This document shows positions 571 through 61,297 of a stretch of DNA of 64,000 nucleotides, one piece after another. A program made the position numbers and the translations under genes. Source of the stretch: Octopus vulgaris. Taxonomy: Eukaryota. How positions within the stretch are numbered: the stretch's first letter is position 1; each line of letters opens with the position of its first letter. The stretch covers positions 24,738,001-24,802,000 of the forward strand of contig OX597823.1 of NCBI GenBank assembly GCA_951406725.2, given 5' to 3'. The notes below the pieces were generated by a model. It saw only the letters and a program-made list of their open reading frames with translations, was not told where the DNA came from and searched no databases.

Positions 571-1570
571 TTATTTTTAACACTAATATTATGTTGTATA
601 TTTAAAACTTTAGATAATTATGTACGCCTTACAACTAAAATTTTGAAGACAATATTCGAAAGCCATTTGGTTCATTATTTTCTAAACAGACAATTTGATA
701 TAAAAATACAATACACCCATGAAATTATTTTTCTGCATGAGATACCCTTCTCAGAATTAATGTACAATCTAGTATACCATGAGACACACATGGAACCTTG
801 CCTCAGTTTTAAGTTGTAGATAATATATTTGTACACCCCTCTTCTGATGGTGTGCTTTTGTTTAAGATTAAATGACCATAAGGATACTTCACATGCTGGT
901 TGATGATCTTTTGAATTATGTTAAGATTCTACAAAAGCACACTGTTAGATAGGAAGGCACAAATGGATTACATGCAACTTAAATTTTGAAGCAAGGTTTC
1001 AAATGTGTCTGAAGATGGTCTACATTCACATGAACTATGACTAAGTTGTCATTTTGTGGATCAATTATTTGTTTATAATACAGGTATGTCCAACCCATGC
1101 TTGCATGGAAAATGAACATTAAATGATTTCTGTGATGATGATGAGGATCACCATTTAAAACAAATTATGTGACAGATATTATATAGTATCTAATATGTGT
1201 GTGTGAATATAAAATGTCTTTTTTGTTTTCTTTCATTCCTTTTTTATCTAGCCGATGATGATGTTTTTACACTTAAAAGGACTACCATACCACTTCACGA
1301 TACATTTGGTCGGATTAATAGAGTCACTTTAAAGGAGTGTGAACGTGCTTGCCTTCAAATTCCAGGATGTAAATCATATGAGTATCATGAAAATAAAGAA
1401 TTCTGTAATCCATCTAATGAAACTCACCTGACTAATGACCTTAAACCTGACAAAGATGGATGGGATATATATATCATGAACCCAGGTCAGTGGAGTGTAT
1501 TCATTTAATTTTATGTGTGTCTGCATGCATGTACATGTCAGGTTGTCTGCATCTACATTTGCACATATGT
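570..1570 (+). repeat. Segmental duplicate (intron + exon B1) of ~15460-16460
   Basis: Colinear similarity, e.g. gagacacacatggaaccttgcctca and ggatacttcacatgctggttg occur in both copies. Confidence 0.9.
1252..1485 (+). CDS. Exon B1: PAN/Apple domain type B
   Basis: ctag|CC..CCAG|gtcagt, 234 nt; [77 protein letters not shown]. Confidence 0.9.
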
Positions 1571-4112: not shown

Positions 4113-4168
<56 letters not shown>

Positions 4169-4194
4169 TGCTGTACATGTATATAATGTGTGTG

Positions 4195-4229
<35 letters not shown>

Positions 4230-4247
4230 TACTGTACATGTATATAA

Positions 4248-4297
<50 letters not shown>

Positions 4298-7200
4298 TAC
4301 ATTATATACATCTACATGAATACATATATATATATATATATATAGGGAAATTTAATAAGGAGATGAACTTTCAAGATGTTGTTAAATCATTTTTATCTTG
4401 AATTCTTCTACATGTCTTCCAACGGATATACTCCAAAATGTCCAACAGGATAAATTATTGTAAGCAATGCATCAATCTCATCAAGAAGGATATACATAAC
4501 AAACTCATCAGACAGACATGTTAACAGAAATAGAAAGTCCTATCATACGTAACATATTTATATTCATATGCACACACTTGTAAACACTCAAATATTTGAC
4601 ATGTAAATATAAACATTTTATACCTACTAAAAAACACAAATGTATACAACCCCACCACACATACACATTATATACAGGTACATGCATAGATATATACATA
4701 CAAGTATGATGTATGTATTTATATCTGAATGCAAATTTCTTCTGTCTGATTCACTCAATACTATTTATTGTAATATTGCCATTTCCACCTAATTCTCATC
4801 CTCCTCTTAAGATCCACATAACATTCATATCGGTTTCTCTTTTCAATTCCAGTTTACTCAAATGTTAGCTGTGAAACTCCGAAAGATATTGCTCATACAT
4901 CAAAGTCCTACAATTCCACCAACTATAGATCTGAGGTGACCTATACTTGTCCAGGGGGAGAAAAGTTCAAGTCAATTTGTGGAAAGGACAACAAATGGAC
5001 TCCAATGATATCTCTTTGTAAAGGTAACATAAATAGCTCCTCTTTTGTTGTCTCTAGATAATTTTGTTTACTTTCTATAATAAATGTCTTTGTCAGGGGA
5101 AAACTGGTTGACTCAATATTAATTTTCTAAGTGTCTGTGGTTGGTATGTGGAAAACATTTCCACAAATTATGCAACATTAATTCTACCCAAGGGCCAGGT
5201 AATGCTATGAAATTGGGTGATGTGTTAAGTCTGCCAAACAAAAGCTGGAAGTGTAGAAACTTGTCACAAACAAGCTTCCAACATAGAGTCCATCAACCAG
5301 ATTTCATGCACAAAGCTTAGTTGTGAAGCAAATTCTTAACCTCAGACAAAACTATGCAGCTGTTAGGTAAACTTCTTACCTCTATAGCTATTCCTTGATA
5401 AATCTTGATAGTTTTTTTCTCTTAATTTCTAACTTAACCTTTTGCACCCTTGCTTTCTATTGTCATCCTAATCATTTTACAATATAATTCCATGGGTCCT
5501 CATTTCATAAAACTCGGCAGCCCTTTAAAACGACTTCTGAGACACTTGTTATTTTCCAATTCATACCCTTTAATTATATTATTAATAATAATGCTTCTTG
5601 ATTTATACACAAAGGTAAGTTTTGATGGGAGCTGTTTAGTCAACACCATCAGCCTTATAACTTGATGTAGACATTATGTCATTGACCGCCAACAAGTATG
5701 AAAGGCAAAGTGAACTCTGGATTCATTTGAACTGATATCCAAAAGTGCTGAAATACATAATTTAAAGCATTTCTTCCAATTCTCTTATTAGTATACATTG
5801 ATAATAATGTTGAAGATGATGATGCAAAATTCTTGGGTTTAAATGGATGTCAGTCTAGGGTTAATTGAAGAACCCCCATCATTGAACATTAGGCTCATCT
5901 CTCAGGACAAATGGGGAGTGTGAGGCAATTATTGGGATGGAACTCCCAAGATGAATGTTTACTCCAATTTTTGTAACCTAAACTACAGGTTTATGCACTG
6001 TGGTCCCTATCCACTCTTCCTTATCATTCTTATCTGTTTTACAAGTGTTACTTTATGACCAAAATGGAAAGTCCCAGTCATTAGATCTTTCAACTTCATC
6101 CACTATTTTTGCTATAGCTACTAGATAGCAAAACTGCCTTTTCTTCACTGTTAAAATAAGTACCAGGGTCGATAAAATCAGTACCATTTGAACACTGGGG
6201 TCTATGTAATCAACTTACCTCACTTCTGAACTTGCTGGCCTTGTGCCAAAATTTGAAACCCAAATTATTATTCTTGTTGTATTTCATTGGCCTAAATTTT
6301 ATTCTATGTCTAGATTTTAAGAATCAATTTGTGGAAGTAAATGATTCATTGCTTGATGTACCTGCAAAAAAATTGTGGAAAAAGAAAAACGTTACAGCAG
6401 AAGCCTGTGCAAAAAAATGTTTCTCTGATAAAAAGTGTTTATCATTTGAAATAAGCAAAAGAAGTGGAAAATGCTTCTTATCAAAGAACACTGCAGCTAC
6501 CTCCAACAAATTAAAGGCAGCCAAAACCAGAAATTACTACCAACGAATAAAACGTAATTATCCTTTGTATTTTATTACTGGAACTAGCTGGCCCCATGCC
6601 ATCAAAAATCACGGCTAATTGTTGTATTTTATATAGATATAAGGTATATAATAATCACATATACAAAAATTCATATACTTCCTTACTACATGCGCACACA
6701 TGTACACATATACTCACACAGCACTGAAATGTTATTTGATTTTTGTTTTCAGCATTAAATGTTCATTCACACATACAAACATTCACATTTTGCCATCACT
6801 CCTTCCTTCCTTATTCATTTATCACCTCTTTCTTCCTTTCTCATTCATATGTTGTGATGGAGAAAAACACAAGATTACAAGAGTATTATTATATCACCAT
6901 CTCACTTCCATTGCACACACACACTCACACAAATATTCACATACTTCCCTTTTTACATATACACACATAATCACACAGAGTTGAAATGCTGTTTGATTTT
7001 TTTCACCCCCCTTCCTTATTCATCTATCACCCCTTCCTTTCTCATTCATATGTTTTGACAGAGAAAGACACAAGAGTATTATTATAGTAGATTATTGTTG
7101 TTTTTACTCAGGTTTGGTCCTATTCCTAACAGTATTTATGTGGGTAGCAAGTACCACTTGTAACCTTAGGTATCCACTAGCTTTCAGTAGCCTTTCAAGT

Positions 7201-8240
7201 CTGGTAACTTTTTTGTACCACCTCGTGTAACTAATAGGCCATTTCAAAATTATACACTACATGCATTATAATATTTACTCTGTGTGTGTGTGTGCATGCA
7301 ACTGTTTTGAGTGTGGGTATAAAATTTACTCTTTGTTTTCTTTTTTCTTTCTAGCCAAAGATAGAAAAACTGTGCTTCGTAAAGTTAGCATACTTCAGCA
7401 AGATATTTTAAAACAGCTTCAGAATGTGAACTTAAAGAAGTGTAATGAAGCTTGCCATCAACATCCAGAATGTAATGCATTTGAGTACAAGAAGAGAGAA
7501 ATGGTCTGTGATTTGAGTAATGGGACTCATATGACTGATAAACTTAAACCCAATGATGGAAATGGAGATACTTATATCTTTGATAAAAGTGAGTAGAGTA
7601 TTTTCATTTTATTTTTATGTACATGCTTGTGTGTATCTTACATATTAAAATTGAAAATGTGTGTGTGTGTGTGTATTGGTTTGTCCTCATTTTGCACTAA
7701 AACGGCTCGACCGATTTTGTATGTATGTGGATGTATGTGTGTATGTTTATGTATGTATAAGTATGTACGTATTTATATGTGTGTATATCTATATATATAT
7801 ATATGTTTATATATATATGTGTGTATGTATATATATATATAAATTAGAAAAATATATATATATAAATTAGAAAATTTAAATTATACCATTTAGAAAAATT
7901 ACATATTATAGAAAGATTAAATATTAGATAAAACATATAACAATGATTCAGTAATGTGCAAAATAATAAATAAAACATATATATTTGGTATAAAATGTAT
8001 AATATATACATTTTATCTATTATTTTGCACATTACTTAATCATTGTTATATGTTTTATCTTATATTTAGTCTTTCTATGATATGTAATTTTTCTAAATGG
8101 TATAATTTAATTTTTCATTATTGAATTGATAAAAGGTGGATTTTTTTCTAATTTATATATATATATATTATATTTTGTGAAATTTGATTTAGTATTTCTA
8201 AATTGAATTTTTCCCTGTAAATTTGGAATAATATTCCTTC

Positions 8241-8284
<44 letters not shown>

Positions 8285-8547
8285 TGTATGTATGTGTCTA
8301 TATAGGCTGTGCCTTTCCACTGCCAGTATAGTGTATCTGCCTAAAATACACACACATTAGGATATTTGGACTTTTACTTATAGGAGTATGACTGATTACT
8401 TGTATATATATGAATACCTATATTTCTTTGAGTGTAGGCAACTCCTATATGTATGTAGGTGTATGTATGTGTATGGGTGTATATATGTGTATGCATGTGA
8501 ATCTGTCTACATTTGTATGTACCTGTGTAAATATGTATATATATATG

Positions 8548-8602
<55 letters not shown>

Positions 8603-8967: not shown

Positions 8968-8999
<32 letters not shown>

Positions 9000-11900: not shown

Positions 11901-14900
11901 TGCGAGTGACTAGGCTGTATCCCACACATCCAGAAATTTTTATCATCTTGGCAGTGACACCCAATGGTCCAGAGGATTTCCTTGTTTTCATATCCTTAAT
12001 TGCCTTATCTACTAATCTGCTATCAACTCTGATGGATGGTTCTTCAATTGGTTCAATATTTGAAAGACTCTCCTTCTCCTATTAATTTTCCACATTTAGT
12101 AGCTTTTTGTGGTAATAGAAAATCCACTTCTGAATTCCTGATTGTTCTTAATGTTTATTATTCCTGCACATCTGTCACAAAAACTACCTCCTTAGCTTGT
12201 TACGTTAAGGTTTAAGTGTCCACATTTACTACAAATTTATATTTGTTCATTAGAAGTGATAGAAGTTAAATTATTTTAGTTTTCCAAGACAAAACATTGC
12301 AAAATAGGTATTGTGAAGGGTTATAATCCATGCTATAACTAGCCACATTTATTTATTTGCCTTTACATTCTGAGTTCAAACCCCATTGGTTGTACTTCAC
12401 ATTTCATATTTCTGAAGTTGATAAAACCAGCTCTATTCAACTACTGAGTTTCATTCATTTTCATGAATCATTGCAGAATGTGTGGCTTTATATTTAGGTT
12501 AGAAACTGTTATCATAAATATTGGTAGCATCAACAATAATTATAAATATTTTTAACCCATGCCAGCATGGACAATGGACATTAAATGATGATGATGCTGA
12601 GTAGAGATGGATTGAGAGAATCATCAGAACATCAGACAAACTGTGTTGTGGTATCTTTGACTTCTGAGTTCAGATCTGGCTGATGTCAAATTTGCTTTGT
12701 CAGGGCCAATAAAATAAAATCCCAGTCAAATGTAGGGACCAATTTAACTGATTAACTCTTACCTTAAACTTTTGTCCTTCTTTCTACATTATAAATGAAA
12801 TTATTGTTGCTGTTTCTATTCATATAAATTTGTCTTTAATTCCAGTTGCTAAGAAAAATTTTGTGAAAGTAAGAAGTGGAACTCTGGATGTACCTGAAAA
12901 ATTGTTGTGGCATAGGGAAAATGTAACAGCAGAAGACTGTGCCAAAAAATGTTTTTCTGAAAAAAATTGTTTATCATTTGAAATGAATAAAGAAAATAGA
13001 AAATGTTACCTATCAAAGGAAACTGCAGCTGCTTCCAAGAAAATAAAATCAGCCAAAGACAGAGATTACTACCAACGAGTAAAACGTAATTACTCTTTAC
13101 GTTCCTCTTTTTCTGAAATTTGTGATTCCATTTGTACTTCATAATATATAGACAACCATTTGTGTAAAGACATTGACAGGTTTATCTATAAGGACAGATA
13201 TGGACGTGGTCCTCGAAAAGAAAAGCAATATTAGGAAATGTAAATTCTGTTAAGACATTCTCATACAGAATTTGTTCACTTTAAACACTTTTATGCATGA
13301 TTGAAGTTGTTTTTCATGCAGTGGTGGCTGTAAGAAAGGACGCTCTTATATTTCTTAAATCTGCATAGTAGTGGTGGTGGTGGTGGTGGTGGTGGCAGTG
13401 GTGGTAGAAATCACTTCAAACTTTGGTACAAGGCCAGCAGTTTTGAGGGGACAGTATTAGTTCATACCTATGACCCCAATTCTTGATAGATTTAATAATT
13501 TATCAAAATCAGAAGGATGCAAAATAGTTTTTCCTGGCAGTTTGAACTTGAAATGTAATGAGATGGAAGACATACTGCTAGGTAGCATAGCTTTTGCACA
13601 GTATCTTGCTATTTGTTGCTCTCCTCTGTAATCTGATACACAAAATAACAGAAGAAAATGATTATTTCCAGATTTTGGCATGATTATTATGGCTAGATGC
13701 CCTTCTTATCACCAACAATTTTACCACATGAAAAGAGTATATTTTTTCCATGTTACTAAATTCAAAGATGCTGTCTGCTGGAACTAAAGTGTTCTTCCAA
13801 AATAGATATGAATAATTCTATACTGTTAAGAAGGCAGCCAGTAAATTCACTCACACTGACCTCAAGGATTTTGTCTTTTATTATCATAACCCTTTTCTTT
13901 TTGATACCCAGAGTTTCAGAGTAAATTCACTAGATATAGTGACCTCATGAATCTCAGGGTGTCATCACTATTATGAATTTTCAGTGTCAAAAAGAGAACT
14001 CAGCCATTTATTTTTATATCTGTGAGGAACTTTAACAGGACCAAAGTCACCAACATACATCAATATTTATCTTGGGTACCATTAAGAAGTTCAAGCACAC
14101 TCACAGATCAGGTTCATATTACTTGAAATTGCCTACCAATTTCAAGTAATATGAACAACCATGCCATCAACAGACTCAGGAAGAACTTATTAGGATTCTT
14201 GAAGAAGTTTGATTTAAACTAAGGATTACTACAAATATACTACATTCTAGGAATTGGATATCACTTTAATTTTTAAGTCATTTATCACACAAAGTATGCT
14301 CCTAAAGAATGCCTAATAAGGAGAGCAGACACCTTCATAGAGATTTCAACACCTACTCCAAAAATATAAATGAAACACAGTAACTGGCATTTGTAAAAGA
14401 ATCTCCAATTTAACCTCAAAATAAGATATTTTAGACATTTTTTACAGTACAATAGAGTTTTAGCTAGTATTGGATTTAGTAAGAAGTTATTAAAAACAGA
14501 GCATTCTCCATATCCATACCTGAATAAAATAAGTATGATAAAAATAACTCAGTCTTCCCTTCAAAATAACTCAGTCCTCCCTTCAACCTACATAAATGTG
14601 AATTCAAGTATCTTAATTCTTAGGCACACTTAAGTATCACAGGCTTATGAATGGGCATAGTATTAATGTTTGTTACTCCTGTCTGGGTAGCATGTATTGC
14701 ATGTCACATAGGAAAAGCATGCACTTATTCAGACTTTATTCCAGGCACCTACCTCTAACTGTCAAAATCAATCCAATTTTCCACTGAGAGAATTCTGCAT
14801 AAGACAGCAGTATACAGAACAACTTCCACTCCACTTGATTGTTTCTAAATGAACTACAAGAGACTTACAACTAGTTACTTCAAGGAAAATTTCATGAAGC

Positions 14901-15149: not shown

Positions 15150-15198
<49 letters not shown>

Positions 15199-35618: not shown

Positions 35619-35699
<81 letters not shown>

Positions 35700-38600: not shown

Positions 38601-40323
38601 CATGGATTTTCACCTATTGTGGGTGGTTTTGGAGCATAACACATGTGATAATCAAAGCGATTATTGTATAAAAAATTATTACTATTGTTGTTATTTACAC
38701 TCCCCTAAATTTTCCTTTAATTCCAGTTTCTCAGATCAATTTTGTGAAAGTAAAAGATGCAACTCTGGATGTATCCGGGAAAATATTGTGGAAAGAGAAA
38801 AATGTAACAGCAGATGCTTGTGCGGAAGGATGTTTGTCTAATGAAAATTGTTTATCATTTGAAATAAATAAAAATGATGGAAAATGTTACTTTTCAAGGC
38901 AAACAGCAGCTACCAACAAAAAAATGAAGACAACCAAGAGCAGAGATTACTACCAACGAGTTAAATGTAATTCCGTGCATTTTATTATTGCAATTCTCTT
39001 TTCCTCTTACTTCTAAAATTTGTGATTCCATTTGTAATTCATAATGTACAGACATTGACATGACTCTGTCTTTACAGAAAGACATAGACATATTCCTGAA
39101 AAACAATGAGCAATATTAGGAAATGGAAATACTGAATTTGTTCCTTTTGAACACTTTTATGCATGTTTCAATTGTATTTTATGTAAGTTAAGAGCATTCT
39201 GATAAGGAGAGAGCTACTTCTCCTTGAACAATTACTGCTGTGTCTGAAATAGTTGAAATAGGTCAGCTTGTGTACGTTTTTTTGTTTACTAGTCTTCAAA
39301 TGGAGAAGATCACTTTCCCAAAAGAAGTTTTCTGTCACAAGGGTACTGACCAAAAATTTCACTCTTCGAATTCAAGAAGACACCCTGATCATGCAAATTC
39401 AGTCATTGTCTTCTTGGCCAAACAAAGTTTACACCATTTACTTCCATTGAAGCATGGCACAAGTTATTCTAACAGCTTCCAAGTACCAATTGCAATTCAT
39501 AGTTGCCCCCAGCAGAACATTTTTGGGGGCTTGCTCTGCTCTCATGTCAACTCCAACTTCTCTGACATGTTTCTGTTGTTGTTGTTGTTATTGTTTCTAC
39601 TAATACTACTACTGCTGCTGCTGCTGCTGCAACTACTACAACTGCTACTTTATAGATATATCTAAAATAGATGATTATGCACATGTACCAGCAATCAAAA
39701 CTTTGAGTAAAATATGGGAAAGCCTTGTGTTGCATTATTTTATAAGTGGAGGATACATAAAAATAAAAACAGTACCCATTATTTTCCAGTGTAAGACATT
39801 GTAAGTATTGAGATATGTTTTGAAATAAGTGTCAAGATGTTCTACAGCACACATGGATTCTGATTAGGGTGACATTTTGAGAATCAATCATTTCTTTATT
39901 ATAAATCATGCATTTACATAATTTTGTACAGATACTTTACAATATCTAATGCATGAATGTGGTGTGTGTGTTTTGGGTAGTTGGAGGAGTGTAAAATGTA
40001 TTTCTTGTTCTCTCTTTCTTTTTCCAGCTGACAAACCTGTTATGTTTAGAAAAGCTAGCTTGCCAAGCAAAGCTACTTTAGGACAGCTTGAGGATAAAAC
40101 TTTAAAAGAGTGTGATAAGGCCTGTCATCACTATATAGGATGTAACTCATACCAGTACAATGCTGAAGCTAAGTTGTGTGATCTGAGTAATGTGACTCAG
40201 TTAAATAATGTACTTAAACCCAATGATGGAAATTGGGATATATTTTTGCTTAACCCAGGTGAGTAGTGTTTCCATTTTATTTATTTTGTACCTGTGAGTT
40301 TACATATATGTGTGTAGTGTGTA

Positions 40324-40355
<32 letters not shown>

Positions 40356-49300: not shown

Positions 49301-52300
49301 TTTTGTTTTCAATTGTCTCAATCTTGCTTTAAATTCCAGTTGCTCAGATCCATTTTGTGAAAGTAAAAGATGCAGTTCTGGATGTATCTGGGAAAGCATT
49401 GTTGCACAAGAAAAATGTAACAGCTGATGCTTGTGGTAAAGAGTGTTTGTCTGACAAAACTTGTTTGTCATTTGAAATGAATAAAGAAAACGGAGATTGT
49501 TACTTATCAAAGCAAACTGCAACTAAATCCAAGAAAATGAAATCAGACAAAAGCAGAGATTACTACCAACGAATAAAATGTAATTATTTTTTTGTATTTT
49601 ATCGTTGGATTCCCTTTGCCTCTTTTCTCTGTAATTTGTGATTCTATTTGTACTTCATGATATGTATATACAACCATTTCTGTAAAGACATTGACAGGGT
49701 TGCCTAAAAGATCTGTGGTAGGAGTAATTAGTGCGGAGTTGGAAACTGGGATATCCAAGCATATCTAAAAGGTAAAATGTGAATAAAAGAGAGAGTGGGA
49801 ATAGATTAAGAGGAATTGATGGGGTAGAGGTTGCAAGTGTTTGGGAGCAGAGTGAGAGAAGTTAGATAGCTTGTGGATGATTATGGTGAATAGTGGTCAA
49901 GGATGGAGTGATGATTGATGATAAACATGATTTTGAGGGAAGGGGACAGGAGGTGATGGCTAGTAGTATAGAAAGGGTGAAGAACATCAGAATGTTAATT
50001 ATAAAATAATAGAAATGGGGAAGAAAACAGAGAGGGAGATTAAGGGTAGGTTTTAAGGTGTGTCTAGAGAGTGAGAGATCTTGAGTGATAGGTGGTCAGG
50101 GGTAGATAAGTGTGAGTCAACTGAAAATGGTTCAGGTGAGAGGGAAAGACAGAAAGGAAAATATGTGTGGGAAAAGACAACGTTAAGAATGAAGGATGAA
50201 TGCAAAAGGATGTGGTAATAGGGAGTGAGAGAGATAATTGATAATGCAAACAATGATGATGAAATAAGTAGTTCTAATCTCATTTAACTATAACAGCAAA
50301 ATAATGCAGATGTGAGGAGCACAATGAAGGGAAATAAGGGGTGTGGAAAGCTTAACTGTAACAAGTTTGGTGAAGGACCCAGTTGTGAGCACATACATTA
50401 TGTTTCCAGAACATTAGCTTCACCATGTTGAGCAGGTCTTGCAACCTTGTAGCAATGCGATTCATATACAATTCTCATACAATCTGATTTTTACTCTAAG
50501 AGAGAAGCCTTTTGTAAACCAAAGAAAGATAATAGCTCTCTGAACTTTCTCCAACTCTTCTTACTTTGGCTATTATTCTTTCAGTACACCCCATTCCCTT
50601 CTAATTATATCACCTAGGAACAGAAGCTATCTACTGCCTCCAGAGAGTTTCTCGGGCATTTGAGAAAATCACTTTCCTGTGCACTCTTACTGTTTATTGT
50701 TCTTGCACATCTTTCACAGACAAAGCTTACTTTCTGTTAACCAGCCTGTGATTCTACAGCACCTCTTGTGTATTCATAGTTCACTCTGATTACATGATAT
50801 AGAAGTTCTACCTGCTCCTTTTCTACATATTGAGTAATGTCATTTCCTTTATGGAGGTATAGTTGTGTCTCATTTCCTACTTATTAAAACTTAAGTGTTT
50901 ACTAAGTTAATTTTCATGCCATTTGCTTCCACACCCTGCATTTCATTTCTAATTCCACAACAGACTGGCTATTATAACAAGGTCATTAGCATAGAATGGT
51001 TTCCATGGGCATTCATTCTTAAACTTCTTTGTTATGACCAGGAGGACTACAACAAAAAGAAAAGAACTCCAAACCAAGCCCAGGTGAACTACTACCTGCA
51101 CAACAGATTTGCTACTGCACTCATTGCTAACTTTCACAATAAGCGATTTTCTTATGAACTACATTAGTTGAGTACATTAGTAACACCATATGGCTTTATC
51201 AAAGCCTCAAATATGAAGTGCAATTTAGTTGGGAAAAGAATTACATTTATGTATATTTATAGGATAAAGCATTACCAAGAAGAAAGCAAACATGTACATG
51301 GGGAGGAAAATCAAGGGCTTCTCCCATAAATAGAATAACATTAGTTTTAAGATGTGTATTAAGATGGGTGTATACAGTTTTAGATAAAGAGTAATTAGAT
51401 CTAACAGTAGAAATATATGCATGCATACACACACACACACACACACACACTCACTCATATACGAGTGTGTATGTATCTGCAGGTACTTGATAGCATCACA
51501 ATGCCAAATTGTGCTCATTTTCAAGAGACATTGCATTTAGTTACTTCTGAAGTCAGATGTCAGTTTAGTTGGAGAGAAATAATGCAGTTATTAATAAAAA
51601 CAGCTGAAATTAATACCTACGAGAATTCACAGCTCTAGTATCACTCCTTTATAGTCAGTGGAAACACCCAGCTTCACTTGTTCCAAAGAAGGCCATGGTT
51701 GTTTCATCTGTGGGGGAGGTGATGGTCTTAGTTTGTTGAGATAAAAAAGGCATTATGTTTATTGACTATCTTCAAAAGGGCCATACCATCAATGAAGAGT
51801 ACATTACCAACTTGCTGAGTCAGTTACAAAAAGCTATCATGACCAAACACCCAGGAAAACTGATGAGGTCTTGTTTCATCAGAACAATGTTCCAGCACAC
51901 AAGTCCTTGGTTTCATGGTTGCTATGTCTGGCTGTGACTTTGATCACTCTTACTATTCTCCTGATTTGGCCCCATCTGACCATCATCTATACCCCAACAG
52001 GAAAAAAACACTTGGCTGGGAACCAGTATTGCAGTGATGACATCATATCTGCCGTTGATGGCTTTTTTTTAGTAGTAGGAAGAAAGCTTCTTTACCAATG
52101 GGATCCAGAGCACTGCAATACCAGTGTAAGAAGTATATGGACCACACGGGGAACTATATTGAAAAATAAACCTCATTTGGTTAAATTCCATGAGAGTATT
52201 TTGGTCAAGGTATAAACTTTTCAGCTGACTTCGTATTTGTTATAAATAAATTCTACATTTAAAACAATTTATGAATTGGTTGCTATATAATTTTTAATTT

Positions 52301-55300
52301 GTATGTGGGAGTATAAAAAGTATTTCTTGTTTACTTTCTTATTTTTCTAGCCAAAGATGATGTTTTGGTACTTAAAAGCACTTCCATACCAGGGCATGAT
52401 AGTTTTGAGCGGCTGAAAGATGTGAGCTTAAAGGAGTGTGATCATGCTTGTCATCAAAATCCAGGATGTAACTCTTATGAGTATAATGAAAAACTTAAGT
52501 TGTGTGATCAAAGTAATGTGACTCACTTGACTCAAGACCTTCTACCCAACACATGGGAATGGAATACTTACATCATTAACCCAGGTCAGTAGAGTGTTTT
52601 TATTCTTTTGCTTTGTATGCTTACATATCTATATGTTTGTATGTATTTACATATACCTAAATGTGTGTTTATAATATATATAAACTGCACTGTGGATACC
52701 ATAACCTCAGCCCCTGTGTGAACTTGGATCCTCATAGCTTATCAGCTGGAGCACTCAGACTGCATATAGATTAATTTAGGTTACTAGTGACCTAAAATCT
52801 TCATATTCTGCATATACATATTCCACATGCTGGTAGCTGCCTGTGCTGGTGGCTGCCCATGCTGGTGCCACATAAAAAGCACCTTTGAGCATTGGGCCTC
52901 ACAGAGGCAATGTGGCTGATGTTGGTGTCATGTAACTAGCACACCAGTGACACATAAAAAGCACCTTCCATATGCTGGGCTTCACAGAGGCAATGACAAA
53001 TTACATACTTAAGAAGATCCATCAAACCAAGTGAAATCGTAGTCATGGCAGATATTGGTGTCATGCAAACTGACACCCACACCAGTGTGCATGTAAAAGC
53101 ACTTGTTACACTCTCAGAGTGGTTGGCTTTAGGAAGGGCATCCATCCACAGAAACCATATCAAATCAAACTAGAGTCTGGTGCAACCTTCAGCCTACAAG
53201 CTCCAGTCAAACTGTCAGCCCATGCTAGCATGAACAACAGATGTTAAACAATGATGATATTGATGATATGTGTGGATAGTATTTAAGGACACATGCATTT
53301 TTAGTCATTATTTTATTTGACTAATTTTTATTGAACTTCTATTTCAGAAAAAAACAATGACAGGCCATATGTTTACTAATGAACTGAAAATGCATGCTGT
53401 GATTGTGGCTCTGAAGGCTAAGCATGGTGATTTAGAAATTTCTCATTTTCTGAAAGTTGCAACATCTTTTGTCCACAAGATTCAGTGTGAGTTAGAGAAA
53501 GAAGATGGAAGCATATTACCTGTATCAAAATGTAAAAAGCATTCCAAACGCTCTGATTCTATCAGGACACCTGAATTTATTCAGAAAGTTAAGCAAAACA
53601 TTGAAGACAATCCAGGAAAATCAATGAAGTCAATTGCAAAAACATTTTGTGTACCAGAAAAAACAATCAGAAATGCTGTGCATGAAGACATCAGATACAA
53701 ATCTTAAATGATGAGGTGAGGTCAATTCATGTCAGAAAAAGCAAAAGAAAACTATTTAATTAAATCCAAAAGACTTTTGAACAAACTTAAAAATTCATCA
53801 GAAGATGGTGTGATTTGGTTTTTCTTAGATGAGAAAAACTTTGACTAGGACCAGAAACTAATAAAAGAAATGACAGATGGATATGTACAGTCCCTTCTGA
53901 GATTCCAAGAGTAATGTACACAAAATTTCCAGCAAGTGCCATGGTTTTAGGTGTTGTTAGCAATGACAGACATGTGATGCCGCCTCACTTTTTACTACAA
54001 GGCCTTAGGGTGAATGCTGCTACATGTATTGAGGTTCTGGATAAAGTTGTTAAGCCTTGGGTCAACAATGTATGCAATGGGATGCCTTATGTCTTTCAAC
54101 AAGATTCTGCACATGGCTCATATGACACAAGAATGGATGGCCAACAATTTTCATGATCACATCACCGCCAACATTTGACCTCCTAATTCTCCAGATCTCA
54201 ATCCACTGGACTACTTTGAATGGAACATCATTGAGAAAAATGTCAATTAACTCCCCCATAGCATCTTATAAAGCTAGATTTATATATCCTAAATTTGCAG
54301 AAGAATTTGTCATTGGGTCAGTTTAGCTTAATGGTAAAGCACTGTAATCACAGAGATGTGAGTTCGAGTCTCATGGGTGGCCACTAACTGATTTTTCTGC
54401 AAAATATGGATAGTTTATCCTGCATTTGAGAATAAAATTATTCCCTTATCTGTATCTTTCAATACATCTCAATGCTTCTAAATTAAACTTTGTTTGTTGA
54501 CTTTCAATGTAAGTTGAATGTAAAGTTGAATTTAGCATACATATATATTATATATAAATATAATATGTGACAAATAGTTGGTTGTCATAATAAAACTCAG
54601 AGTTTTGGATACTGGGGTTGAAGTCTGCTCTGGCATCTCATCAGTTATTAAGCCAAAAACGCTATGTAAAAACTGTTGAATAAAGATAAATTATTCCAAC
54701 AGGCATGGTGAAAGTAATACTTCATTCATAGAATCCACATATGCACACATATACACACTCACACACACATGTACGCGCACACACACACACATGTATGTCT
54801 ATATATCTAAATACATACACACTCATGTGTATATACATACAAACACACATATATACATATATACGTCTACGCATACACATACGTTCACCTACATATATGC
54901 CCATGCACGCATCATTACGCTCATATATACATCCCTACACACACACACATATATATACATACATACATGGATATACAAAATTTAGTTTATATACACATGC
55001 ATATACATATGTGGAATACATATATACAAATAAAAACACATACGCAAAAATGCACACATCATTATGTTCATATACACATCTCTATGCGCACATACACATA
55101 CATACGCAGATATACAAAATGTAGACTATACGCACATACACATATATACATGGATAGACGTATATACAAATAAAAACACATACACAAAAAACATAAACCA
55201 TAAAACATTCACATTTGCTGCGAAACTTGAATATATAAATGAGTTATATATGTATATACACAAATACACCCTCCTGTCTGTCAAATACATCTACATCTGT

Positions 55301-57709
55301 AGATATATAAACATATATACATACATATATGTATGAAGGAAGTACAACAGGTAGAGTCTTGCACTCGTATATATACTGTCATTAATACACATGTATATGT
55401 GCATGCACATATACATTAGGTGTATACTACACACATATAAGTTACACAGTTATAAAGGGTGAAAAATAATATACAGAAAAAATATATGAAGTAATAAAAT
55501 ATATAAATATGTAAGAGATATTAAGACATATGAAAGGCTTGTATGTGGACGTAATATAAAAAGCCGGTTCTATCTGTGATCTTGTTGGGTCCAGAAATGT
55601 AGCAAATATTTTGCCAGATGTGGACACGACCCAAAAAGTTCAGTTCTTGGACTTTTCCAGATAAGCCATCTTTCCATATTGCAAAAACAGAACTTTCCAC
55701 TATGAGGCTCACTGAAAGATCTTGGCCAAGTGTAAGCCTTACACCAACAGTAGTGGAAAGTGTGGTCTTTGCAATATGGAAAGATGGCTTATCTGAAAAC
55801 GTTCTTTAGAACCCGCTGGAATTTTCAGATGTGGAAGAAGTGAAGAAAAGAAACAATAGAAATGTTAAAAGGCATCACTTCACAAAAGTTCCAGCACTGC
55901 TTCAGACAGTGGAAAACACACCTGGTCTGATACATTGCTTCAAATGGAGAATACTTTGAAGGTGATAAAAGTGTAAACATGTAAAGCTAAGTGAATAAAA
56001 TAATATTTGGGTAACCCCTCATATATACATAAATACATACATTGATGCTTACATACATACATATATACATGCATACACAGTGTAAAACTCAACAATCCTC
56101 TGAAACAGATTTCCGATATTCTTGCTATCTTCCAATCTACCACCCTTACTTATAATAATATTAATGATAATTTCTGATTTAGGCACAAAGCAAACATTTT
56201 CTGACAGATGCTTTTTTTTTCAATACCTCAATCCCTACAATTTGACTAGTATATTATGTTATCTATCCCTGCAAGTAAAGTTGACCTCAGCTTGATTTTA
56301 CCTAAAAAGCAAAACATTACAAAATCAGTAAAGTTATATTTAGTTACATCTTTTAACATTGTGGCTTCAAATCCCAACAAAACATACTTCACTTGTCTTC
56401 ACTAAGGAAATAACAAGGGACCAGGAGTTGTGGCAATTTGCTGAGGATGCACCAAGATAAGTCAAGTCGCTGTTATCTATACATATAAGTTTGTCCTTTA
56501 CAGGTGCTGGTGCCACATACAATTCACTCATGCTGGTGCTGCATAAATGTACCTATGCCAGTAGCACAAACATACATTCATATGTATTTATTTGTCACTG
56601 GCATGGATGTACATACATACATTCATACACACACATACATACTTACATGTATTATATCTATGTGCAAATTTCATTAATTTGATTCACTTTGTATCTTTTA
56701 TTGTAACATTGTCATTATTTCTTTATTCTCATCCTGTTCCTAATATTGATGTCAATTTATTTCCTCAATTTCAGTTAACTCAAAAATTAACTGTGGACAA
56801 CCAAAAGACATTGTTGGTGCTGAAAAGGACTACAAATCTACCGACTATAAATCTGAAGTGACCTATACTTGTCCATCAAGTGAGACAATAAAGTCTATAT
56901 GTGAAAAGAACAGCACATGGACTCCAGTACCACCTATTTGTTACGGTAACATAAATAGCTTCTCTCTTATTGTTTTTGTCCATGTAATTTTGTTTTATTT
57001 TTGTGCTAAGTGTCTTTGTCAGAGGAGGACTGACAAACTCTATGACAATTTCCACAGTTATTGTAACTGGTAGAAGCTATCCTTAGAGAGGAATTTATCC
57101 TCAGACCAGAGACCTCACCAAATACTTGTAACAGACTGCATTCCCTTAATTCTTCCCAAGGGCAAGGTAATGCTATTTAATCAAGTGATGGATTAAGTAT
57201 GCTGATCAAGAACTGGTAGTTTGAAAGCTTCCACATTGACCTTTCTCGCCAATACTCTTTGTCATCATTACACTGTGGCTTCAAATCCCAACAAGACATA
57301 TTTTACTGGGCTTCACTAAGGAAATGAAAGGGACTAAGAGTTGTGGTAATTTGCTGTACTTAGGAGGATGTGCTTAGTTAAGTGAAATTGGTGTCATCTA
57401 TACATACAGGCTTGTCTTTTCCAGGTGCTAGTGCTGCATAACATGCACTCATGCTGGTACTGCATAAAAGCACCCATACCAGTGGCACATTAAGAGCACC
57501 CAATACACACACTGTAAAGTGTCTGGCATTAGGAAGGACATCCAGCCTGAGAAATCATGTCATAACAAACAACTGGAGTTTGGATGGCACCCTGGCTGGC
57601 AAGTTCCTGTCAAATCATCCAACCCATGCCAACATGAATGATAGACGTTAAATGATGATGATGATGATGATGATGTGTGTGTGTGTGTATATATATATGT
57701 ATTTATATT

Positions 57710-57765
<56 letters not shown>

Positions 57766-59045: not shown

Positions 59046-59079
<34 letters not shown>

Positions 59080-61297
59080 TGTATGTATGTATGTATGTAT
59101 ACAGATAGATAGATAAATAGATAGATAGACAGACAGACATTATTGGAGCAAAGTATGAGTGAACTTGAGATCAAGCAGAGAGAATGCAAATCCTTAATTC
59201 ATATGCTATAAATGATCATGATATCTTGGACTATAAAAATCTGCAAACCTTCTTAAGGTTTAAAGTTCCTTCACAACCTTGCTATCTTGTCAAAATCTAT
59301 TCTCAAATTAAAAGGAGAAGAAAATACACACACTCACACATACAAGGTATCCCCCCACACACACACACACCAAATGATTGATTATTAAGTTAGTATTTAT
59401 GAATAGAAATTAATAGAAAGGAATTTTTTTGTGTACAGTTATTTTCAAACTGAAGGCCATTTTGCCTAGGCACTATTGATAATGTGAAGTAATAAAATTG
59501 GAAACATAAGAAACATTTTGTTTGGTATGTGTCTATTTTTACACAACAGTTGTTTTTGGTTCATCGACTTCTGCTTGTTTTGTACCATAAATATTATTTT
59601 GTAAGCATCTGCATAAAAAAAACTGAGTGATGTAAGATTTGGAGACGGCAGAGTTTATTTTACAGAATCTCTTCTTCTTCCACTCCTCCAGTTCAGCCCC
59701 ACCTCATCAAGATTAGTCATTACTGTGATAGTCTGGGGGTGCTCTGTCTTCCTGGAAATAAAACTCCACATCTTCAAAATCCTCTTGAATGCTTGGCATG
59801 GTAGATAGTCATCGCAGGTTCAAGTAAATAAGATCGCTCACTGTACTATCAAAAAGAATGGTCTGGTTATTCAATTTGAATATAAGCTGTGCCATACTTT
59901 TAACTCCTGATAAATTAACGTGATGTTCCTCAGTAATATGTGGATTCTAAGGACCCCAGAAGGTTGACTGTGACAGCTGAGCCATTTAATTTAGATACAG
60001 CCTCATCACACTAAACAATCTTTCTTAGAATGTATGCACTTCCTATACATCTTGTCAAGTACACACACAAAACTCTGGGACTATAGAAATCTAAAGATTT
60101 AGAGGATAATGAATAAAACAAAATGCTTTCCCTTACAATCTTACTAGCAAGCAGGTGGCCAATCAAAGTGTATTCTAAATTAAAAAGAGAAAAAGAACAT
60201 GCATGCACGCACGTGCACATACACAGGCATACACACATACTTACATACATGCATACACACACACATACATACATGCATGCATGGTGGCTGCCCCCTCGTT
60301 ATCGAGTGTGGCCATTGCGCAAAGCTTAATCAATGTTGTTATCATGCAATGCCTGTGCAAGAAGATTTTTTTTAAAGTGAGGAAAGGCTGTGCACTGAGT
60401 CAGTCCCACTCACTAAGCAACAGCAGCCATAATCCAAAAAGAAGAACAAGTCAACAGCATCAGTAACCACTGAGCCACAGGTTTTATGTCAGAGTTATCC
60501 CAGTTACCTGAGTTACCTTCTCCTCGAAGGATGCCCTAACAAACGCTAGAAGTTCTTCACTCCCAATGGTTTAACCGCATGGTCGGGTATTCAGTCCAAT
60601 TATTTCTATGTCCCCACGCATGATACAGCCTTAAGACATTTATTGGATGGCCGTTGACTCTCAAGAGTTCCTCCACCCTTTGACGGGTTTTGTTTTTCAT
60701 CCCGCAGGGTGTCCAATAAACACCCTCCTCACCAAGCAAGCAAGCTTGGTGGGGTTGCCGGTTTAGTCGCTGACGACCCGACCATGCAACAGGTTGTACT
60801 GGGTTACATGTTACCAGTAGCACTCGAAAGTGACCTGACATACACATGCATGCATACATACATACATACATACATACATACATACATACACATACACACA
60901 TACATACATACATACATACACACACACACATACATACATATATACATACATACTTACATATATACATTTTTATATGTGTGCTTGCATCTAAGTATGTATT
61001 AGTATGCAGATGTCTTCAGACTGTTTCACTCAATATTTTCATTGTAACATTGTCATTATCTCCTTATTCTCACCCTCCCCCAAACATACTCTCACCATTG
61101 ACACCAGTTTCTCCTTTCAATTTCAGTTCACTCCAAAGTTAACTGTGGACCACCAAAAGACATTGTTGGTGCTGACAAGTCCTACAATAGCACCTCCTAT
61201 AATTCTGAAGTGACCTACACTTGTCCAGAAGGAGAACACTTTAAGTCAATATGTAAAAAGGATAATAAATGGTCTCCAGTAAATTCTTCATGTAAAG
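1252..61297 (+). CDS. Partial multi-exon gene (18 exons in window) encoding a large extracellular-type mosaic protein of tandem PAN/Apple and Sushi/CCP domains; 5' and 3' ends lie outside the window
   Basis: 18 exons with polypyrimidine tract + AG acceptors and GT donors. All are phase 1-1 with lengths 240/234/231/171 nt, all are open, and junction codons are sense (GTT, GAT, CCC, ATT, CCT, TCT, GCT, TCC). Cys spacing matches PAN (C-x3-C-x5-C-x11-C) and CCP (C..PP...Y..EVTYTC...C....W......C). That they form one transcript is inferred. Confidence 0.85.
1689..2945 (-). mobile_element. Degenerate DNA transposon, CMC/Chapaev3-like transposase remnant
   Basis: Minus-strand fragments [45 protein letters not shown] and [22 protein letters not shown], with frameshifts; terminus begins CAC. 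Family assignment is from motif recall. Confidence 0.55.
2952..3212. mobile_element. Short non-autonomous interspersed element (possibly Helentron-associated)
   Basis: gcaaatttcattgaatctatccagcagttcttgagatatc followed by acagacaaacaaacaaac and an imperfect terminal hairpin accttc..gaggt; abuts the Chapaev-like remnant. Confidence 0.35.
4110..4345. repeat. (AT)n microsatellite with a duplicated ~63-nt spacer unit
   Basis: Long TA runs separated by two copies of tggt(g/a)ctgtacatgtatataatgtgtgtg. Confidence 0.9.
4700..6150 (+). repeat. Segmental duplicate (S1 and flanking introns) of ~18320-19795
   Basis: Intron ~5120-6030 is nearly identical to ~18740-19650; this explains the twin ORFs 5450..5665 and 19073..19288. 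Confidence 0.92.
4853..5023 (+). CDS. Exon S1: short Sushi/CCP domain
   Basis: ccag|TT..AAAG|gtaaca, 171 nt; [56 protein letters not shown] (not in the ORF track; translated by hand). Confidence 0.88.
6314..6553 (+). CDS. Exon A1: PAN/Apple domain type A (Lys-rich)
   Basis: ctag|AT..AAAC|gtaatt, 240 nt; [79 protein letters not shown]. Confidence 0.88.
6584..7091 (-). mobile_element. Non-autonomous Helitron-like element inserted 30 nt downstream of exon A1
   Basis: On the minus strand it begins TCTACTATAAT and ends with a GC-rich imperfect hairpin then CTAG, inserted at A|T. It has an internal direct duplication. The paralogous position after A3 (cactggaatttt) lacks it. Confidence 0.55.
7355..7588 (+). 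CDS. Exon B2: PAN/Apple domain type B
   Basis: ctag|CC..AAAA|gtgagt, 234 nt; [77 protein letters not shown]. Confidence 0.85.
7850..8170. repeat. AT-rich inverted repeat (MITE/foldback-like)
   Basis: aaattataccatttagaaaaattacata...gtaatgtgcaaaataata (~7878-7968) is the reverse complement of tattattttgcacattac...tatgtaatttttctaaatggtataattt (~8018-8108); flanked by (TA)n. Confidence 0.75.
8225..9075. repeat. Compound (TA)n/(TG)n/(TATG)n low-complexity tract
   Basis: Direct inspection: (GT)n at ~8558-8598, (TATG)n at ~8968-9060. Confidence 0.9.
9750..10282 (-). mobile_element. Degenerate RTE-like LINE 3' fragment
   Basis: Minus-strand [22 protein letters not shown]; similar sequence at ~32600-33200 and ~50480-50950. 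Confidence 0.5.
11380..12100 (-). mobile_element. RTE-like LINE reverse transcriptase fragment
   Basis: [45 protein letters not shown]. Confidence 0.75.
12846..13085 (+). CDS. Exon A2: PAN/Apple domain type A
   Basis: ccag|TT..AAAC|gtaatt, 240 nt; [79 protein letters not shown]. Confidence 0.88.
13830..15080 (+). mobile_element. Highly decayed Penelope-like retroelement remnant
   Basis: Similar to ~21430-22350, which encodes a degenerate [19 protein letters not shown] motif resembling the Penelope KIFNRNTVKVSYSC region. Confidence 0.35.
16144..16377 (+). CDS. Exon B3: PAN/Apple domain type B (closest paralog of B1)
   Basis: ttag|CT..CCAG|gtcagt, 234 nt; [77 protein letters not shown] (translated by hand). 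Confidence 0.9.
16990..17255 (+). mobile_element. RTE-like LINE RT fragment (same family as 11380-12100)
   Basis: [51 protein letters not shown]. Confidence 0.75.
17256..18300 (-). mobile_element. RTE (BovB-like) LINE RT fragment, frameshifted
   Basis: [28 protein letters not shown]; [12 protein letters not shown]; LLFVDDATL; FIYLGCTIS. Confidence 0.85.
18480..18650 (+). CDS. Exon S2: short Sushi/CCP domain (paralog of S1)
   Basis: ccag|TT..AAAG|gtaaca, 171 nt; [56 protein letters not shown]. Confidence 0.88.
20757..20996 (+). CDS. Exon A3: PAN/Apple domain type A (paralog of A1)
   Basis: ctag|AT..AAAT|gtaatt, 240 nt; [79 protein letters not shown]. Confidence 0.88.
21430..22350 (+). mobile_element. 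Highly decayed Penelope-like retroelement remnant
   Basis: ORF 22128..22364 [33 protein letters not shown]; sits in the paralogous position to 13830-15080 (after a PAN-A exon). Confidence 0.4.
23780..25500 (-). mobile_element. Degenerate non-LTR retrotransposon, R4/Dong-like RT
   Basis: [20 protein letters not shown]; [14 protein letters not shown]; [13 protein letters not shown]; MEFGLKKC; [21 protein letters not shown] second fragment lies at ~40370-40770. Confidence 0.75.
25863..26096 (+). CDS. Exon B4: PAN/Apple domain type B (paralog of B2)
   Basis: ccag|CT..ACAG|gtcagt, 234 nt; [77 protein letters not shown]. Confidence 0.9.
27199..28020. repeat. Long inverted repeat (foldback), arms ~300-390 nt, spacer ~130 nt
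   Basis: gtgaaatgttttgtaaatatttccatagtcttcaaatagtctgtc (27200) pairs with gacagactatttgaagactatggaaatatttacaaaacatttcac (ends ~28019); inner pairs gacctaaaagtgacct/aggtcacttttaggtc and ggttggaattgttctaa/ttagaacaattccaacc. Confidence 0.9.
28367..28492. repeat. Near-perfect 62-bp-arm palindrome
   Basis: tatatgagtgcatctttttcctgattgatggtctcctaggcaactcatgtatatatttatat - ct - atataaatatatacatgagttgcctaggagaccattaatcagggaaaagatgcattcatata. Confidence 0.92.
28546..29665 (-). mobile_element. Degenerate mariner (Tc1/mariner) transposon
   Basis: Minus-strand remnants of LLQ(H)[20 protein letters not shown] and [10 protein letters not shown]; paralogous copy at 57817-58985. Confidence 0.75.
29670..30290 (-). 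mobile_element. SINE-like repeat with (TGA)n tail (family also at ~9345-9560, 10305-10620, 41120-41530, 46440-46690, 48740-49072, 52830-53270, 57300-57675, 61900-62056, 63972-64000)
   Basis: Shared core catcatcgtttaa.g.ccgctttccatgctagcatgggttggac...ctggatgcccttcctaac.ccaaccactcc in many copies on both strands. Confidence 0.8.
30300..32460 (+). repeat. Segmental duplicate (S3 and flanks) of ~60845-63150
   Basis: Colinear; the first ~560 nt after the exon differ at about 9 positions by hand count. This explains twin ORFs such as 31098..31292 and 61601..61861. Confidence 0.92.
30558..30728 (+). CDS. Exon S3: short Sushi/CCP domain
   Basis: tcag|TT..AAAG|gtaatg, 171 nt; [56 protein letters not shown]. 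Confidence 0.88.
33260..33430 (+). CDS. Exon S4: short Sushi/CCP domain
   Basis: tcag|CT..GAAG|gtaacg, 171 nt; [56 protein letters not shown]. Confidence 0.88.
35605..35702. repeat. (AT)n/(AGAT)n microsatellite
   Basis: Direct inspection. Confidence 0.9.
36030..38310 (-). mobile_element. RTE (BovB-like) LINE, 5'-truncated and frameshifted, including RT and 3' end
   Basis: ORFs 37278..38126, 36832..37251, 36280..36828 and 36066..36455: [57 protein letters not shown]-terminal [17 protein letters not shown]. Confidence 0.9.
38727..38966 (+). CDS. Exon A4: PAN/Apple domain type A
   Basis: ccag|TT..AAAT|gtaatt, 240 nt; [79 protein letters not shown]. Confidence 0.88.
40028..40258 (+). CDS. Exon B5: PAN/Apple domain type B
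   Basis: ccag|CT..CCAG|gtgagt, 231 nt (one codon shorter, frame kept); [76 protein letters not shown]. Confidence 0.9.
42700..44860 (+). mobile_element. L1/Tx1-like LINE RT remnant
   Basis: [64 protein letters not shown], and later GGLGMP; frameshifted. Confidence 0.85.
45237..45407 (+). CDS. Exon S5: short Sushi/CCP domain
   Basis: tcag|TT..AAAG|gtaaat, 171 nt; [56 protein letters not shown]. Confidence 0.88.
49340..49579 (+). CDS. Exon A5: PAN/Apple domain type A
   Basis: ccag|TT..AAAT|gtaatt, 240 nt; [79 protein letters not shown]. Confidence 0.88.
51660..52232 (+). mobile_element. Mariner transposase 3' fragment
   Basis: [16 protein letters not shown]; FHQNNVPAH; degenerate YSPDLAPSD. 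Confidence 0.7.
52351..52584 (+). CDS. Exon B6: PAN/Apple domain type B
   Basis: ctag|CC..CCAG|gtcagt, 234 nt; [77 protein letters not shown]. Confidence 0.9.
53290..54265 (+). mobile_element. Degenerate IS630/Tc1/mariner (maT/DD37D-like) transposon
   Basis: HTH region [14 protein letters not shown]; WFFLDEKNF; MVLGVVS; YVFQQDSA; [12 protein letters not shown]; internal stops. Confidence 0.75.
54316..54383 (+). pseudogene. tRNA-like sequence (tRNA pseudogene or SINE head)
   Basis: A-box TAGCTTAATGG, D-stem GCTT/AAGC, T-arm GTGAG-TTCGAGT-CTCAT, imperfect acceptor stem; the anticodon arm is too short for a functional tRNA. Confidence 0.45.
54735..55440. repeat. (CA)/(TA)/(TACA) low-complexity tract with an internal duplication
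   Basis: Direct inspection; tatatacaaataaaaacacatac occurs twice. Confidence 0.85.
55653..55799. repeat. Inverted repeat, ~48-nt arms and 48-nt loop
   Basis: cagataagccatctttccatattgcaaa..actttccacta pairs with tagtggaaagt..tttgcaatatggaaagatggcttatctg. Confidence 0.85.
56775..56945 (+). CDS. Exon S6: short Sushi/CCP domain
   Basis: tcag|TT..TACG|gtaaca, 171 nt; [56 protein letters not shown]. Confidence 0.86.
57817..58985 (-). mobile_element. Degenerate mariner transposon (paralog of 28546-29665)
   Basis: [22 protein letters not shown]; same terminus taccaga(c/t)tgagtcaaaa as the 28546 copy. Confidence 0.8.
61127..61297 (+). CDS. Exon S7: short Sushi/CCP domain (close paralog of S3)
   Basis: tcag|TT..AAAG|gtaatg, 171 nt; [56 protein letters not shown]. 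Confidence 0.88.

Follow-up and report, generated by a model that had tools for sequence, protein, structure and literature searches.

The window analysed here is a 64-kb stretch of the 2.8-Gb Octopus vulgaris genome (C10:24,738,001-24,802,000; C10 stands for contig OX597823.1). A six-frame scan with splice-site inspection reveals 18 module exons on the forward strand, all within window positions 1252..61297 (Table 1). These belong to three classes—i.e. PAN-A (A, 240 nt), PAN-B (B, 234 or 231 nt), and Sushi (S, 171 nt)—and follow the order B,S,A,B,A,B,S,A,B,S,S,A,B,S,A,B,S,S (5 PAN-A, 6 PAN-B, and 7 Sushi). Every exon has AG/GT ends and phase 1-1, and the 18 spliced together give 3,798 nt, or 1,266 codons, with zero stops. 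The original prediction had read this same set of exons, order, extent, and open codons, and it is borne out by splice sites, Pfam, and shuffled controls.

The Pfam check proposed at the time also comes out in its favor. All 11 A and B exons pass the PAN_1 cut-off (PF00024; 28.6-42.2 bits vs 21.4), and 6 of 7 S exons pass that of Sushi (PF00084), the seventh scoring 20.4 vs 20.7; four Cys and a W are invariant in all 7 Sushi exons. With profiles built from the locus itself, the real window yields 18 matches, compared with 0 in its reversed, its complemented, and each of five hexamer-shuffled versions. No module exons beyond the 18 were found in the 64-kb window.

Two blocks of the window, 4709-6155 and 18336-19794, are 90% identical, yet the Sushi exons they enclose are just 79% identical, a pattern that possibly reflects gene conversion or fast exon change. 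An exact intronic match of 178 nt is also present after Sushi exons at window positions 5177 and 18799. The idea that Sushi exons are followed by a conserved intronic splicing element was rejected, because flank similarity only falls off with distance, in line with duplication.

Table 1. Module exons of the window (window positions) and terminal exons of the giant gene (C10 positions)
Feature	Position	Strand	Evidence
PAN-B exon (unit 85)	1252..1485	+	splice sites, Pfam
Sushi exon	4853..5023	+	splice sites, Pfam
PAN-A exon (basic; unit 86)	6314..6553	+	splice sites, Pfam
PAN-B exon	7355..7588	+	splice sites, Pfam
PAN-A exon (unit 87)	12846..13085	+	splice sites, Pfam
PAN-B exon	16144..16377	+	splice sites, Pfam
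Sushi exon	18480..18650	+	splice sites, Pfam
PAN-A exon (unit 88)	20757..20996	+	splice sites, Pfam
PAN-B exon	25863..26096	+	splice sites, Pfam
Sushi exon	30558..30728	+	splice sites, Pfam
Sushi exon	33260..33430	+	splice sites, Pfam
PAN-A exon (unit 89)	38727..38966	+	splice sites, Pfam
PAN-B exon (231 nt)	40028..40258	+	splice sites, Pfam
Sushi exon	45237..45407	+	splice sites, Pfam
PAN-A exon (unit 90)	49340..49579	+	splice sites, Pfam
PAN-B exon	52351..52584	+	splice sites, Pfam
Sushi exon (Pfam 20.4, below 20.7 cut-off)	56775..56945	+	splice sites, Pfam
Sushi exon	61127..61297	+	splice sites, Pfam
Giant gene, leader exon	C10:23,362,495-549	+	homology to small paralog 5' region (DNA query)
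Giant gene, 30-nt leader exon	C10:23,363,457-486	+	homology to small paralog 5' region (DNA query)
Giant gene, GON exons	C10:24,990,060-331; 24,994,551-727; 24,997,435-576; 25,002,974-25,003,050	+	

The window within a 349-exon reading frame

When one B and one A exon of the window were used as queries, each returned at least 111 matches among the best 150 candidates scored, and 106 and 107 of these, respectively, fall in the 23.27-24.99 Mb interval of C10, always on the + strand. A 1.86-Mb block drawn from C10:23,148,001-25,062,000, analysed as one piece and containing zero N, holds 346 intact module exons, 3 of which belong to a small paralog gene; two degraded fragments and one 12-bit match were left out of these counts. 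We find that the window is interior to a frame of 349 exons (C10:23,362,495-25,003,050, + strand; 1,640,556 bp, or 1.64 Mb), within which its exons are numbers 279-296 and encode about residues 19,418-20,684 of the model. The 349 exons comprise 2 leader, 105 PAN-A, 105 PAN-B, 133 Sushi, and 4 GON exons. AG/GT ends are found in 349/349 of them, and the joined CDS of 73,059 nt has a single stop at its end. It is thus likely that the window is part of one stop-free, 349-exon gene. The giant PAN-PAN-Sushi repeat protein originally proposed is upheld, in a gene about 19 times the window's share.

Extending the locus, as had been suggested, recovers a signal-peptide-like leader at its start and a GON domain at its end. 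The O. bimaculoides model LOC106869402 pointed to the GON domain at the far end of the array, and the leaders of both the giant gene and the small paralog, missed by an ab initio signal-peptide scan, were located through homology. The predicted product has 24,352 aa, a mass of 2.75 MDa, a pI of 8.9, 1,390 Cys, and 272 N-glycan sequons. The giant's leader is only moderately hydrophobic; the highest hydropathy window of the model (1.49) is at the N-terminus. No transmembrane segment is found in the 24,352-aa model, in which no 19-residue window rises above 1.6, and a KDEL-like C-terminal end is absent. At assumed rates, the 1.64-Mb primary transcript would take ~9-27 h to transcribe, which counts against the single-chain reading.

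Several other features were observed along the frame. One B exon (C10:24,093,506-24,093,706) is divergent and shortened to 201 nt, and is also present in an O. bimaculoides model; it represents a conserved landmark within the chain. Degraded A and B exon fragments located in introns (C10:24,195,914-24,196,042 and 24,207,898-24,207,972) are leftovers of module turnover. The shortest intron, 132 nt between A and B exons (C10:24,967,916-24,968,047), is in frame and free of stops, and its retention would add 44 residues with the frame intact. Furin-type R-x-[KR]-R sites occur only three times in 24,352 residues (at 11,964, 16,693, and 22,149), and might serve as processing points. Introns also contain ORFs of up to 1,078 codons (e.g. 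C10:23,377,447-23,381,125 and 23,617,956-23,621,636; two copies are 97.8% identical), which we take to be LINE-like retrotransposon ORFs, and a GON intron presumably holds a mariner-like transposase fragment near 24,993,400. About 6 kb past the stop codon, many short repeated matches (C10:25,008,900-25,011,950) suggest a tandem repeat array.

Domains and predicted folds

The modules had been described as PAN/Apple domains, and the PAN part of this description stands, given the Pfam matches in the window. The apple part does not. Apple domains of the factor XI/prekallikrein type have six cysteines and three disulfides, whereas the PAN exons of the giant carry four, as in the HGF-N type. Specifically, with the small paralog included, four Cys are found in 106/106 A and 104/105 full-length B exons, the remaining B exon having five.

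The predicted PAN-A, taken from an O. sinensis segment, matches HGF N (3hms) with Z 12.0 and an rmsd of 1.9 over 79 aligned residues, and the predicted PAN-B matches PAN/apple chains with Z 6.4-6.7. HGF N binds heparin via a basic patch. Mean net charge is +7.4 for A, -0.6 for B, and +2.7 for S, and at 11 PAN-A columns, at least 70% of copies have K or R. Judging from fold and charge only, PAN-A is likely to bind glycans. The prediction of a PAN-A + PAN-B complex from window domains, with alignments not used, scored 0.00, which carries no weight for or against pairing, and a multi-module predicted model reached a pTM of 0.34, too low to place the domains relative to one another.

The GON domain (PF08685) is C-terminal and occupies the final four exons of the frame. 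The first of these scores 47.1 bits and the O. bimaculoides ortholog 114.8, against a cut-off of 22.6. In a model of GON-Abd-1, the GON domain has a pLDDT mostly above 90; a fold search with the whole model returned no Foldseek match at E <= 0.001, and the matches listed leave the GON domain uncovered. The start of GON resembles fibrillar collagen C-propeptides in three tests that are related to one another (5k31, E 3.4e-07; Atlas, 0.93; Pfam COLFI, under cut-off). These are leads, not proof, that GON is an oligomerising or lectin-like cap. A 2012 survey attributes an ER-export role to the domain, places it always at the C-terminus, and gives GON proteins of 219-2,289 aa (PMC3338439).

The exon inventory consists of leader, A, B, S, and GON only. 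The ADAMTS identity implied by the label on CAI9728796 was rejected, as Pfam finds neither reprolysin metalloprotease nor thrombospondin type 1 domains in the C-terminal ortholog and the paralog. The SVEP1-like label on XP_036361599 and CAI9728790 was similarly rejected, both models being composed of A, B, and S modules only, with no vWA, EGF, or pentraxin among the precomputed Pfam matches of XP_036361599.

A small paralog and molluscan relatives

A small intact paralog (C10:23,269,851-23,294,199) is present 68 kb upstream of the giant gene. It is composed of a leader at 23,269,851, a 30-nt exon, one A, one B, one S, and four GON exons, the last ending near 23,294,199. Its A exon matches GON-Abd-1 (R4G2C1, Abdopus aculeatus) at 81%, and the small gene is the ortholog of that protein. 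The original prediction recognised no named protein with the repeated PAN-PAN-CCP architecture; the unit itself does have a named relative, GON-Abd-1 (UniRef R4G2C1), which is built as leader-A-B-Sushi-GON. The public O. vulgaris model of the small paralog, CAI9728787, carries the name ADAMTS9-like and is missing both its A exon and its true leader.

The giant belongs by its parts—i.e. a paralogous leader, a 30-nt exon, and four GON exons—to the cephalopod GON-Abd/GON-Sep group, and GON-Abd-1 and its orthologs LOC106874924 (O. bimaculoides) and LOC115215708 (O. sinensis) share with it these parts, PAN-A, PAN-B, and Sushi, and the exon junctions. Between giant and small paralog, the leader region is 72% identical in DNA and GON 58% in protein; they differ in cassette number, with one A-B-S in the small gene (465 aa) and 105 in the giant (24,352 aa). 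By parts and exon structure, the giant is a member of the PAN/Sushi-GON group, and not an ADAMTS, a SVEP1, or a Dscam-type array.

Other molluscan proteins, including Sepia CAE1175485 (B-S-S-GON), GON-Sep-2 (S-GON), and PAN-GON proteins of Lottia, Patella, and Haliotis, resemble the giant in having PAN and/or Sushi ahead of a C-terminal GON. Unlike the giant, these are about 290-430 aa long and have one PAN or none. Each octopus GON is 44% identical to that of Sepia CAE1175485, and a related class combines PAN, Sushi, and fibrinogen/COLFI.

The protein group of the small paralog (group 1238; R4G2C1, A0A0L8GSV1) was detected in the O. vulgaris posterior salivary gland proteome with 18 peptides and 43% coverage (PMC7693380 Table S1). 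None of the giant's older O. bimaculoides identifiers is among the rows listed from the supplement of that study (PMC7693380), and a proteome database lacking the full 349-exon model would miss most giant peptides. Because the small paralog is in this proteome, secretion of the giant by the gland gains indirect support, and the posterior salivary gland is the leading candidate for its site.

Upstream of the small paralog is a two-pore potassium channel-like ORF (Ion_trans_2; C10:23,150,580-23,151,491). Other PAN exons, mostly as A-B-like pairs, are found at C13:19.92, 19.98, and 76.17 Mb, C17:45.99-46.00 Mb, and C6:48.62 Mb; the C17 copies are B-like and on both strands. One of these loci matches O. 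sinensis WSC-domain models at 98%, and another an Argonauta four-PAN protein at 62-73%.

Repeat grammar, age, and selection

The rule that each A is followed by a B, read from the window by the original prediction, extends to 105/105 units of the gene. Over these units (the small paralog's unit removed), the number of Sushi spacers is 0 in 3 cases, 1 in 73, 2 in 27, and 3 in 2, a range of 0-3 that replaces the 0-2 first proposed; the final S,S of the window is itself followed by a third Sushi at C10:24,803,134, 1.1 kb beyond the window end. Paralog identity is highest at a lag of 4 (A, B) or 5 (S), and clustering reveals a 13-exon super-repeat (4 A-B pairs and 5 Sushi) over units 17-33 and 61-84. 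Units 88-101 form a less regular block, with the window (units 85-90) in transition. Median identity among paralogs is 58% for A, 45% for B, and 57% for S, and certain pairs reach 94-99%.

Analyses of O. bimaculoides models reveal how this order compares between species. In four models, the domain class order agrees at 66/66 exons with 82-85% identity, and the exon in the same position is the best match at 59/66. Because the models align position by position, most of the array predates the split between O. bimaculoides and O. vulgaris. In XP_014770598, a fifth model, the matches are spread over several 3' paralogs with no fixed order, which suggests later turnover in the 3' part of the array. 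Among named proteins, multi-cassette arrays are found only in Octopus records, and single-exon matches at 55-77% suggest that arrays may exist in other octopods.

No stop is observed in the 343 repeat exons, compared with ~535 expected if they were unconstrained; this rough estimate uses terminal branch lengths and assumes equal mutation rates, and deleted exons leave no trace in it. All copies retain the four Cys, though Cys codons vary. Paralog dN/dS is 0.51-0.86, and amino-acid change (dN) is about as fast as divergence of the intron flanks. Because local alignment and the choice of partners on the flanks both push the flank distances down, these rates do not amount to evidence of positive selection. 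Frame and fold are conserved, and surfaces are loosely held or diversifying; the fast amino-acid change fits such a surface better than it fits one fixed ligand site.

The gene may have arisen when a small leader-A-B-Sushi-GON gene was duplicated in tandem. The A-B-S cassette of one copy would then have been amplified about 105 times via unequal crossing-over, and later in 13-exon blocks of 4 A-B pairs and 5 Sushi, the symmetric phase-1 exons preserving the frame throughout. This proposed birth by cassette amplification, super-repeats included, can be directly traced because the small intact parent adjoins the giant.

One gene or several

The original prediction had named first or last exons between the modules as the sign of several small tandem genes. 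We looked for these and find no extra leader or GON exon inside the array in a search for paralogous copies. Across 1.86 Mb, the leader, the 30-nt exon, and every one of the four GON exons occur exactly twice, once in each gene, and a genome-wide search with GON exon 1 also returns 2 copies. A filter for hidden Cys-rich phase-1 exons, which recovers 322/343 known exons, yields 44 intronic candidates; the top recurring ones look retrotransposon-derived or repetitive, and comparing the 44 with 19 public models gives zero matches. At this recall, there is no fourth recurring class of Cys-rich phase-1 exon in the introns. An intron could conceal a first or last exon of unrelated sequence, the searches having covered paralogous and Cys-rich phase-1 exons. 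From the DNA, we infer that the giant is quite probably one transcription unit; that its product is routinely full-length is evenly balanced.

Many of the joins recur in public models, which are predictions. Of 342 internal junctions, 155 are spelled exactly in one or more of those from O. vulgaris or O. sinensis, with O. vulgaris proteins matching the exons at 100% and those of O. sinensis at 98-100%. The last B is joined to GON in both O. bimaculoides XP_014770611 and O. vulgaris CAI9728796. A search of the open-access literature found no description of the locus. If it is one gene, it has escaped notice because public annotation breaks it up into fragments that are uncharacterised or wrongly named.

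The best surviving alternative, which we regard as unlikely, treats the single locus as a library of modules. Exon skipping and early ends would give many shorter secreted isoforms with a variable recognition repertoire, and the full chain of ~24,000 residues would be rare or never made. Every repeat exon is phase 1-1, just 0.19% of all donor-acceptor pairings would make a stop, and most A-exon donors have no G at -1, all of which favor such use. So do the high paralog dN/dS and three O. vulgaris models (CAI9728790, -92, and -96) that skip single exons or A-B pairs. However, the strict A-before-B order and the retained 13-exon super-repeats argue against it, as do O. sinensis XP_036361601, where 36 consecutive modules follow with no skip, and the order-preserving O. 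bimaculoides models. Intron similarity falls with distance from the exon and shows no separate conserved peak. The A-B-S order is also interleaved, with no AA or BB neighbors among intact exons, unlike the type-clustered, mutually exclusive arrays of the Dscam type, and the array has no internal leader copy of the kind expected from clustered protocadherins, with a promoter and signal peptide per variable exon.

The public annotation itself amounts to a second alternative, in which the locus is a cluster of several separate genes and GON is found on the last only. RefSeq and GenBank models do split the locus into several genes in three Octopus species, but their ends differ among species and fall inside ordinary 0.6-8.2 kb introns, and at both termini they carry short stubs that share no homology. 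Together with leader and GON exons that have no internal copy, this makes separate genes improbable.

Slightly less probable still is a role inside the secretory pathway, where the giant would act as a scaffold for gland cargo or help to export it, after the ER role reported for GON in ADAMTS9/GON-1. PAN and Sushi modules are typically extracellular, and both the 343 disulfide-rich beads of these types and a C-terminus with no KDEL-like end stand against this role. In its favor, PMC3338439 reports that GON works in the ER and that it invariably sits at the C-terminus, a position it also has in the giant. An assembly artefact or a decaying pseudogene array is largely refuted and hardly credible, for although two degraded fragments lie in introns and some paralog pairs are 94-99% identical, the 1.86 Mb have zero N, median paralog identity is 45-58%, the order recurs in O. 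sinensis and O. bimaculoides models that were annotated independently, the 343 exons have zero stops, and three sequencing runs (one maybe the source sample) contain 34-69% of the words of window 1200-7650. No RNA run is among those listed for window 1200-7650, which has no bearing on splicing in either direction.

Proposed role and significance

We slightly favor a secreted 2.75-MDa chain, with 105 PAN-PAN pairs, 133 Sushi, and one GON, that cross-links anionic glycans in an octopus secretion. That this chain is a single 24,352-residue polypeptide, amplified ~105-fold from a small salivary-gland gene and acting as a micrometre-long, periodic, polyvalent cross-linker, is plausible, if a little short of even. 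Directed to the ER by its leader, the chain would form about 690 disulfides there, and up to 272 N-glycan sites could be used. The product would be a protease-hardy string of beads, roughly 0.95-1.25 micrometre long as estimated from typical domain sizes. Each PAN-A, with its charge of about +7 and HGF N fold, may have a weak affinity for sulfated or acidic glycans; avidity would come from the 105 copies, which would bridge many chains into a gel, coat, or adhesive. The Sushi domains would set the spacing between PAN pairs, and GON, whose first subdomain is collagen C-propeptide-like, may seed oligomers or assist ER export.

If one transcript is made, the locus is a titin-scale gene (349 vs 363 exons) for a secreted protein, and if the proposed chain is real, it ranks among the largest secreted animal proteins. 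The gene would offer a test of how faithfully hundreds of near-identical exons are spliced, and of how a megadalton chain leaves the ER. Octopus secretions may owe part of their structure to the giant, which also opens a way to study the GON domain; in the whole-model search with GON-Abd-1, no clear structural match to that domain emerged.

Comparison with known systems

Drosophila Dumpy resembles the giant in being huge, extracellular, and Cys-rich, in its repeats and comparable mass, and in having an assembly domain at the C-terminus. It differs in its EGF/DPY modules, ZP domain, and membrane anchor, and has no PAN-Sushi cassette or GON. At the level of single modules, the apicomplexan lectins MIC4 and SML-2, which have six-Cys apple domains, match the fold of PAN-A with Z about 8 and are also found by sequence (4a5v, 2yil), but identity of HGF N, MIC4, and SML-2 to the giant's PAN is only 13-25%. 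With ADAMTS9, ADAMTS20, and GON-1, the C-terminal GON is the sole part shared.

In gene architecture, the comparison is with titin, for which PMC5498329 gives 363 exons and up to 38,000 aa. Both have hundreds of one-domain exons, super-repeats, and a micrometre-scale bead string, the giant's being predicted. By contrast, titin is intracellular, composed of Ig and Fn3 domains, and has no homology to the giant, which has a leader, PAN and Sushi domains predicted to be disulfide-bonded, and a span of 1.64 Mb. In chain length, the giant is exceeded by PKZILLA-1, which is reported at 45,212 aa (bioRxiv 2024.01.29.577497).
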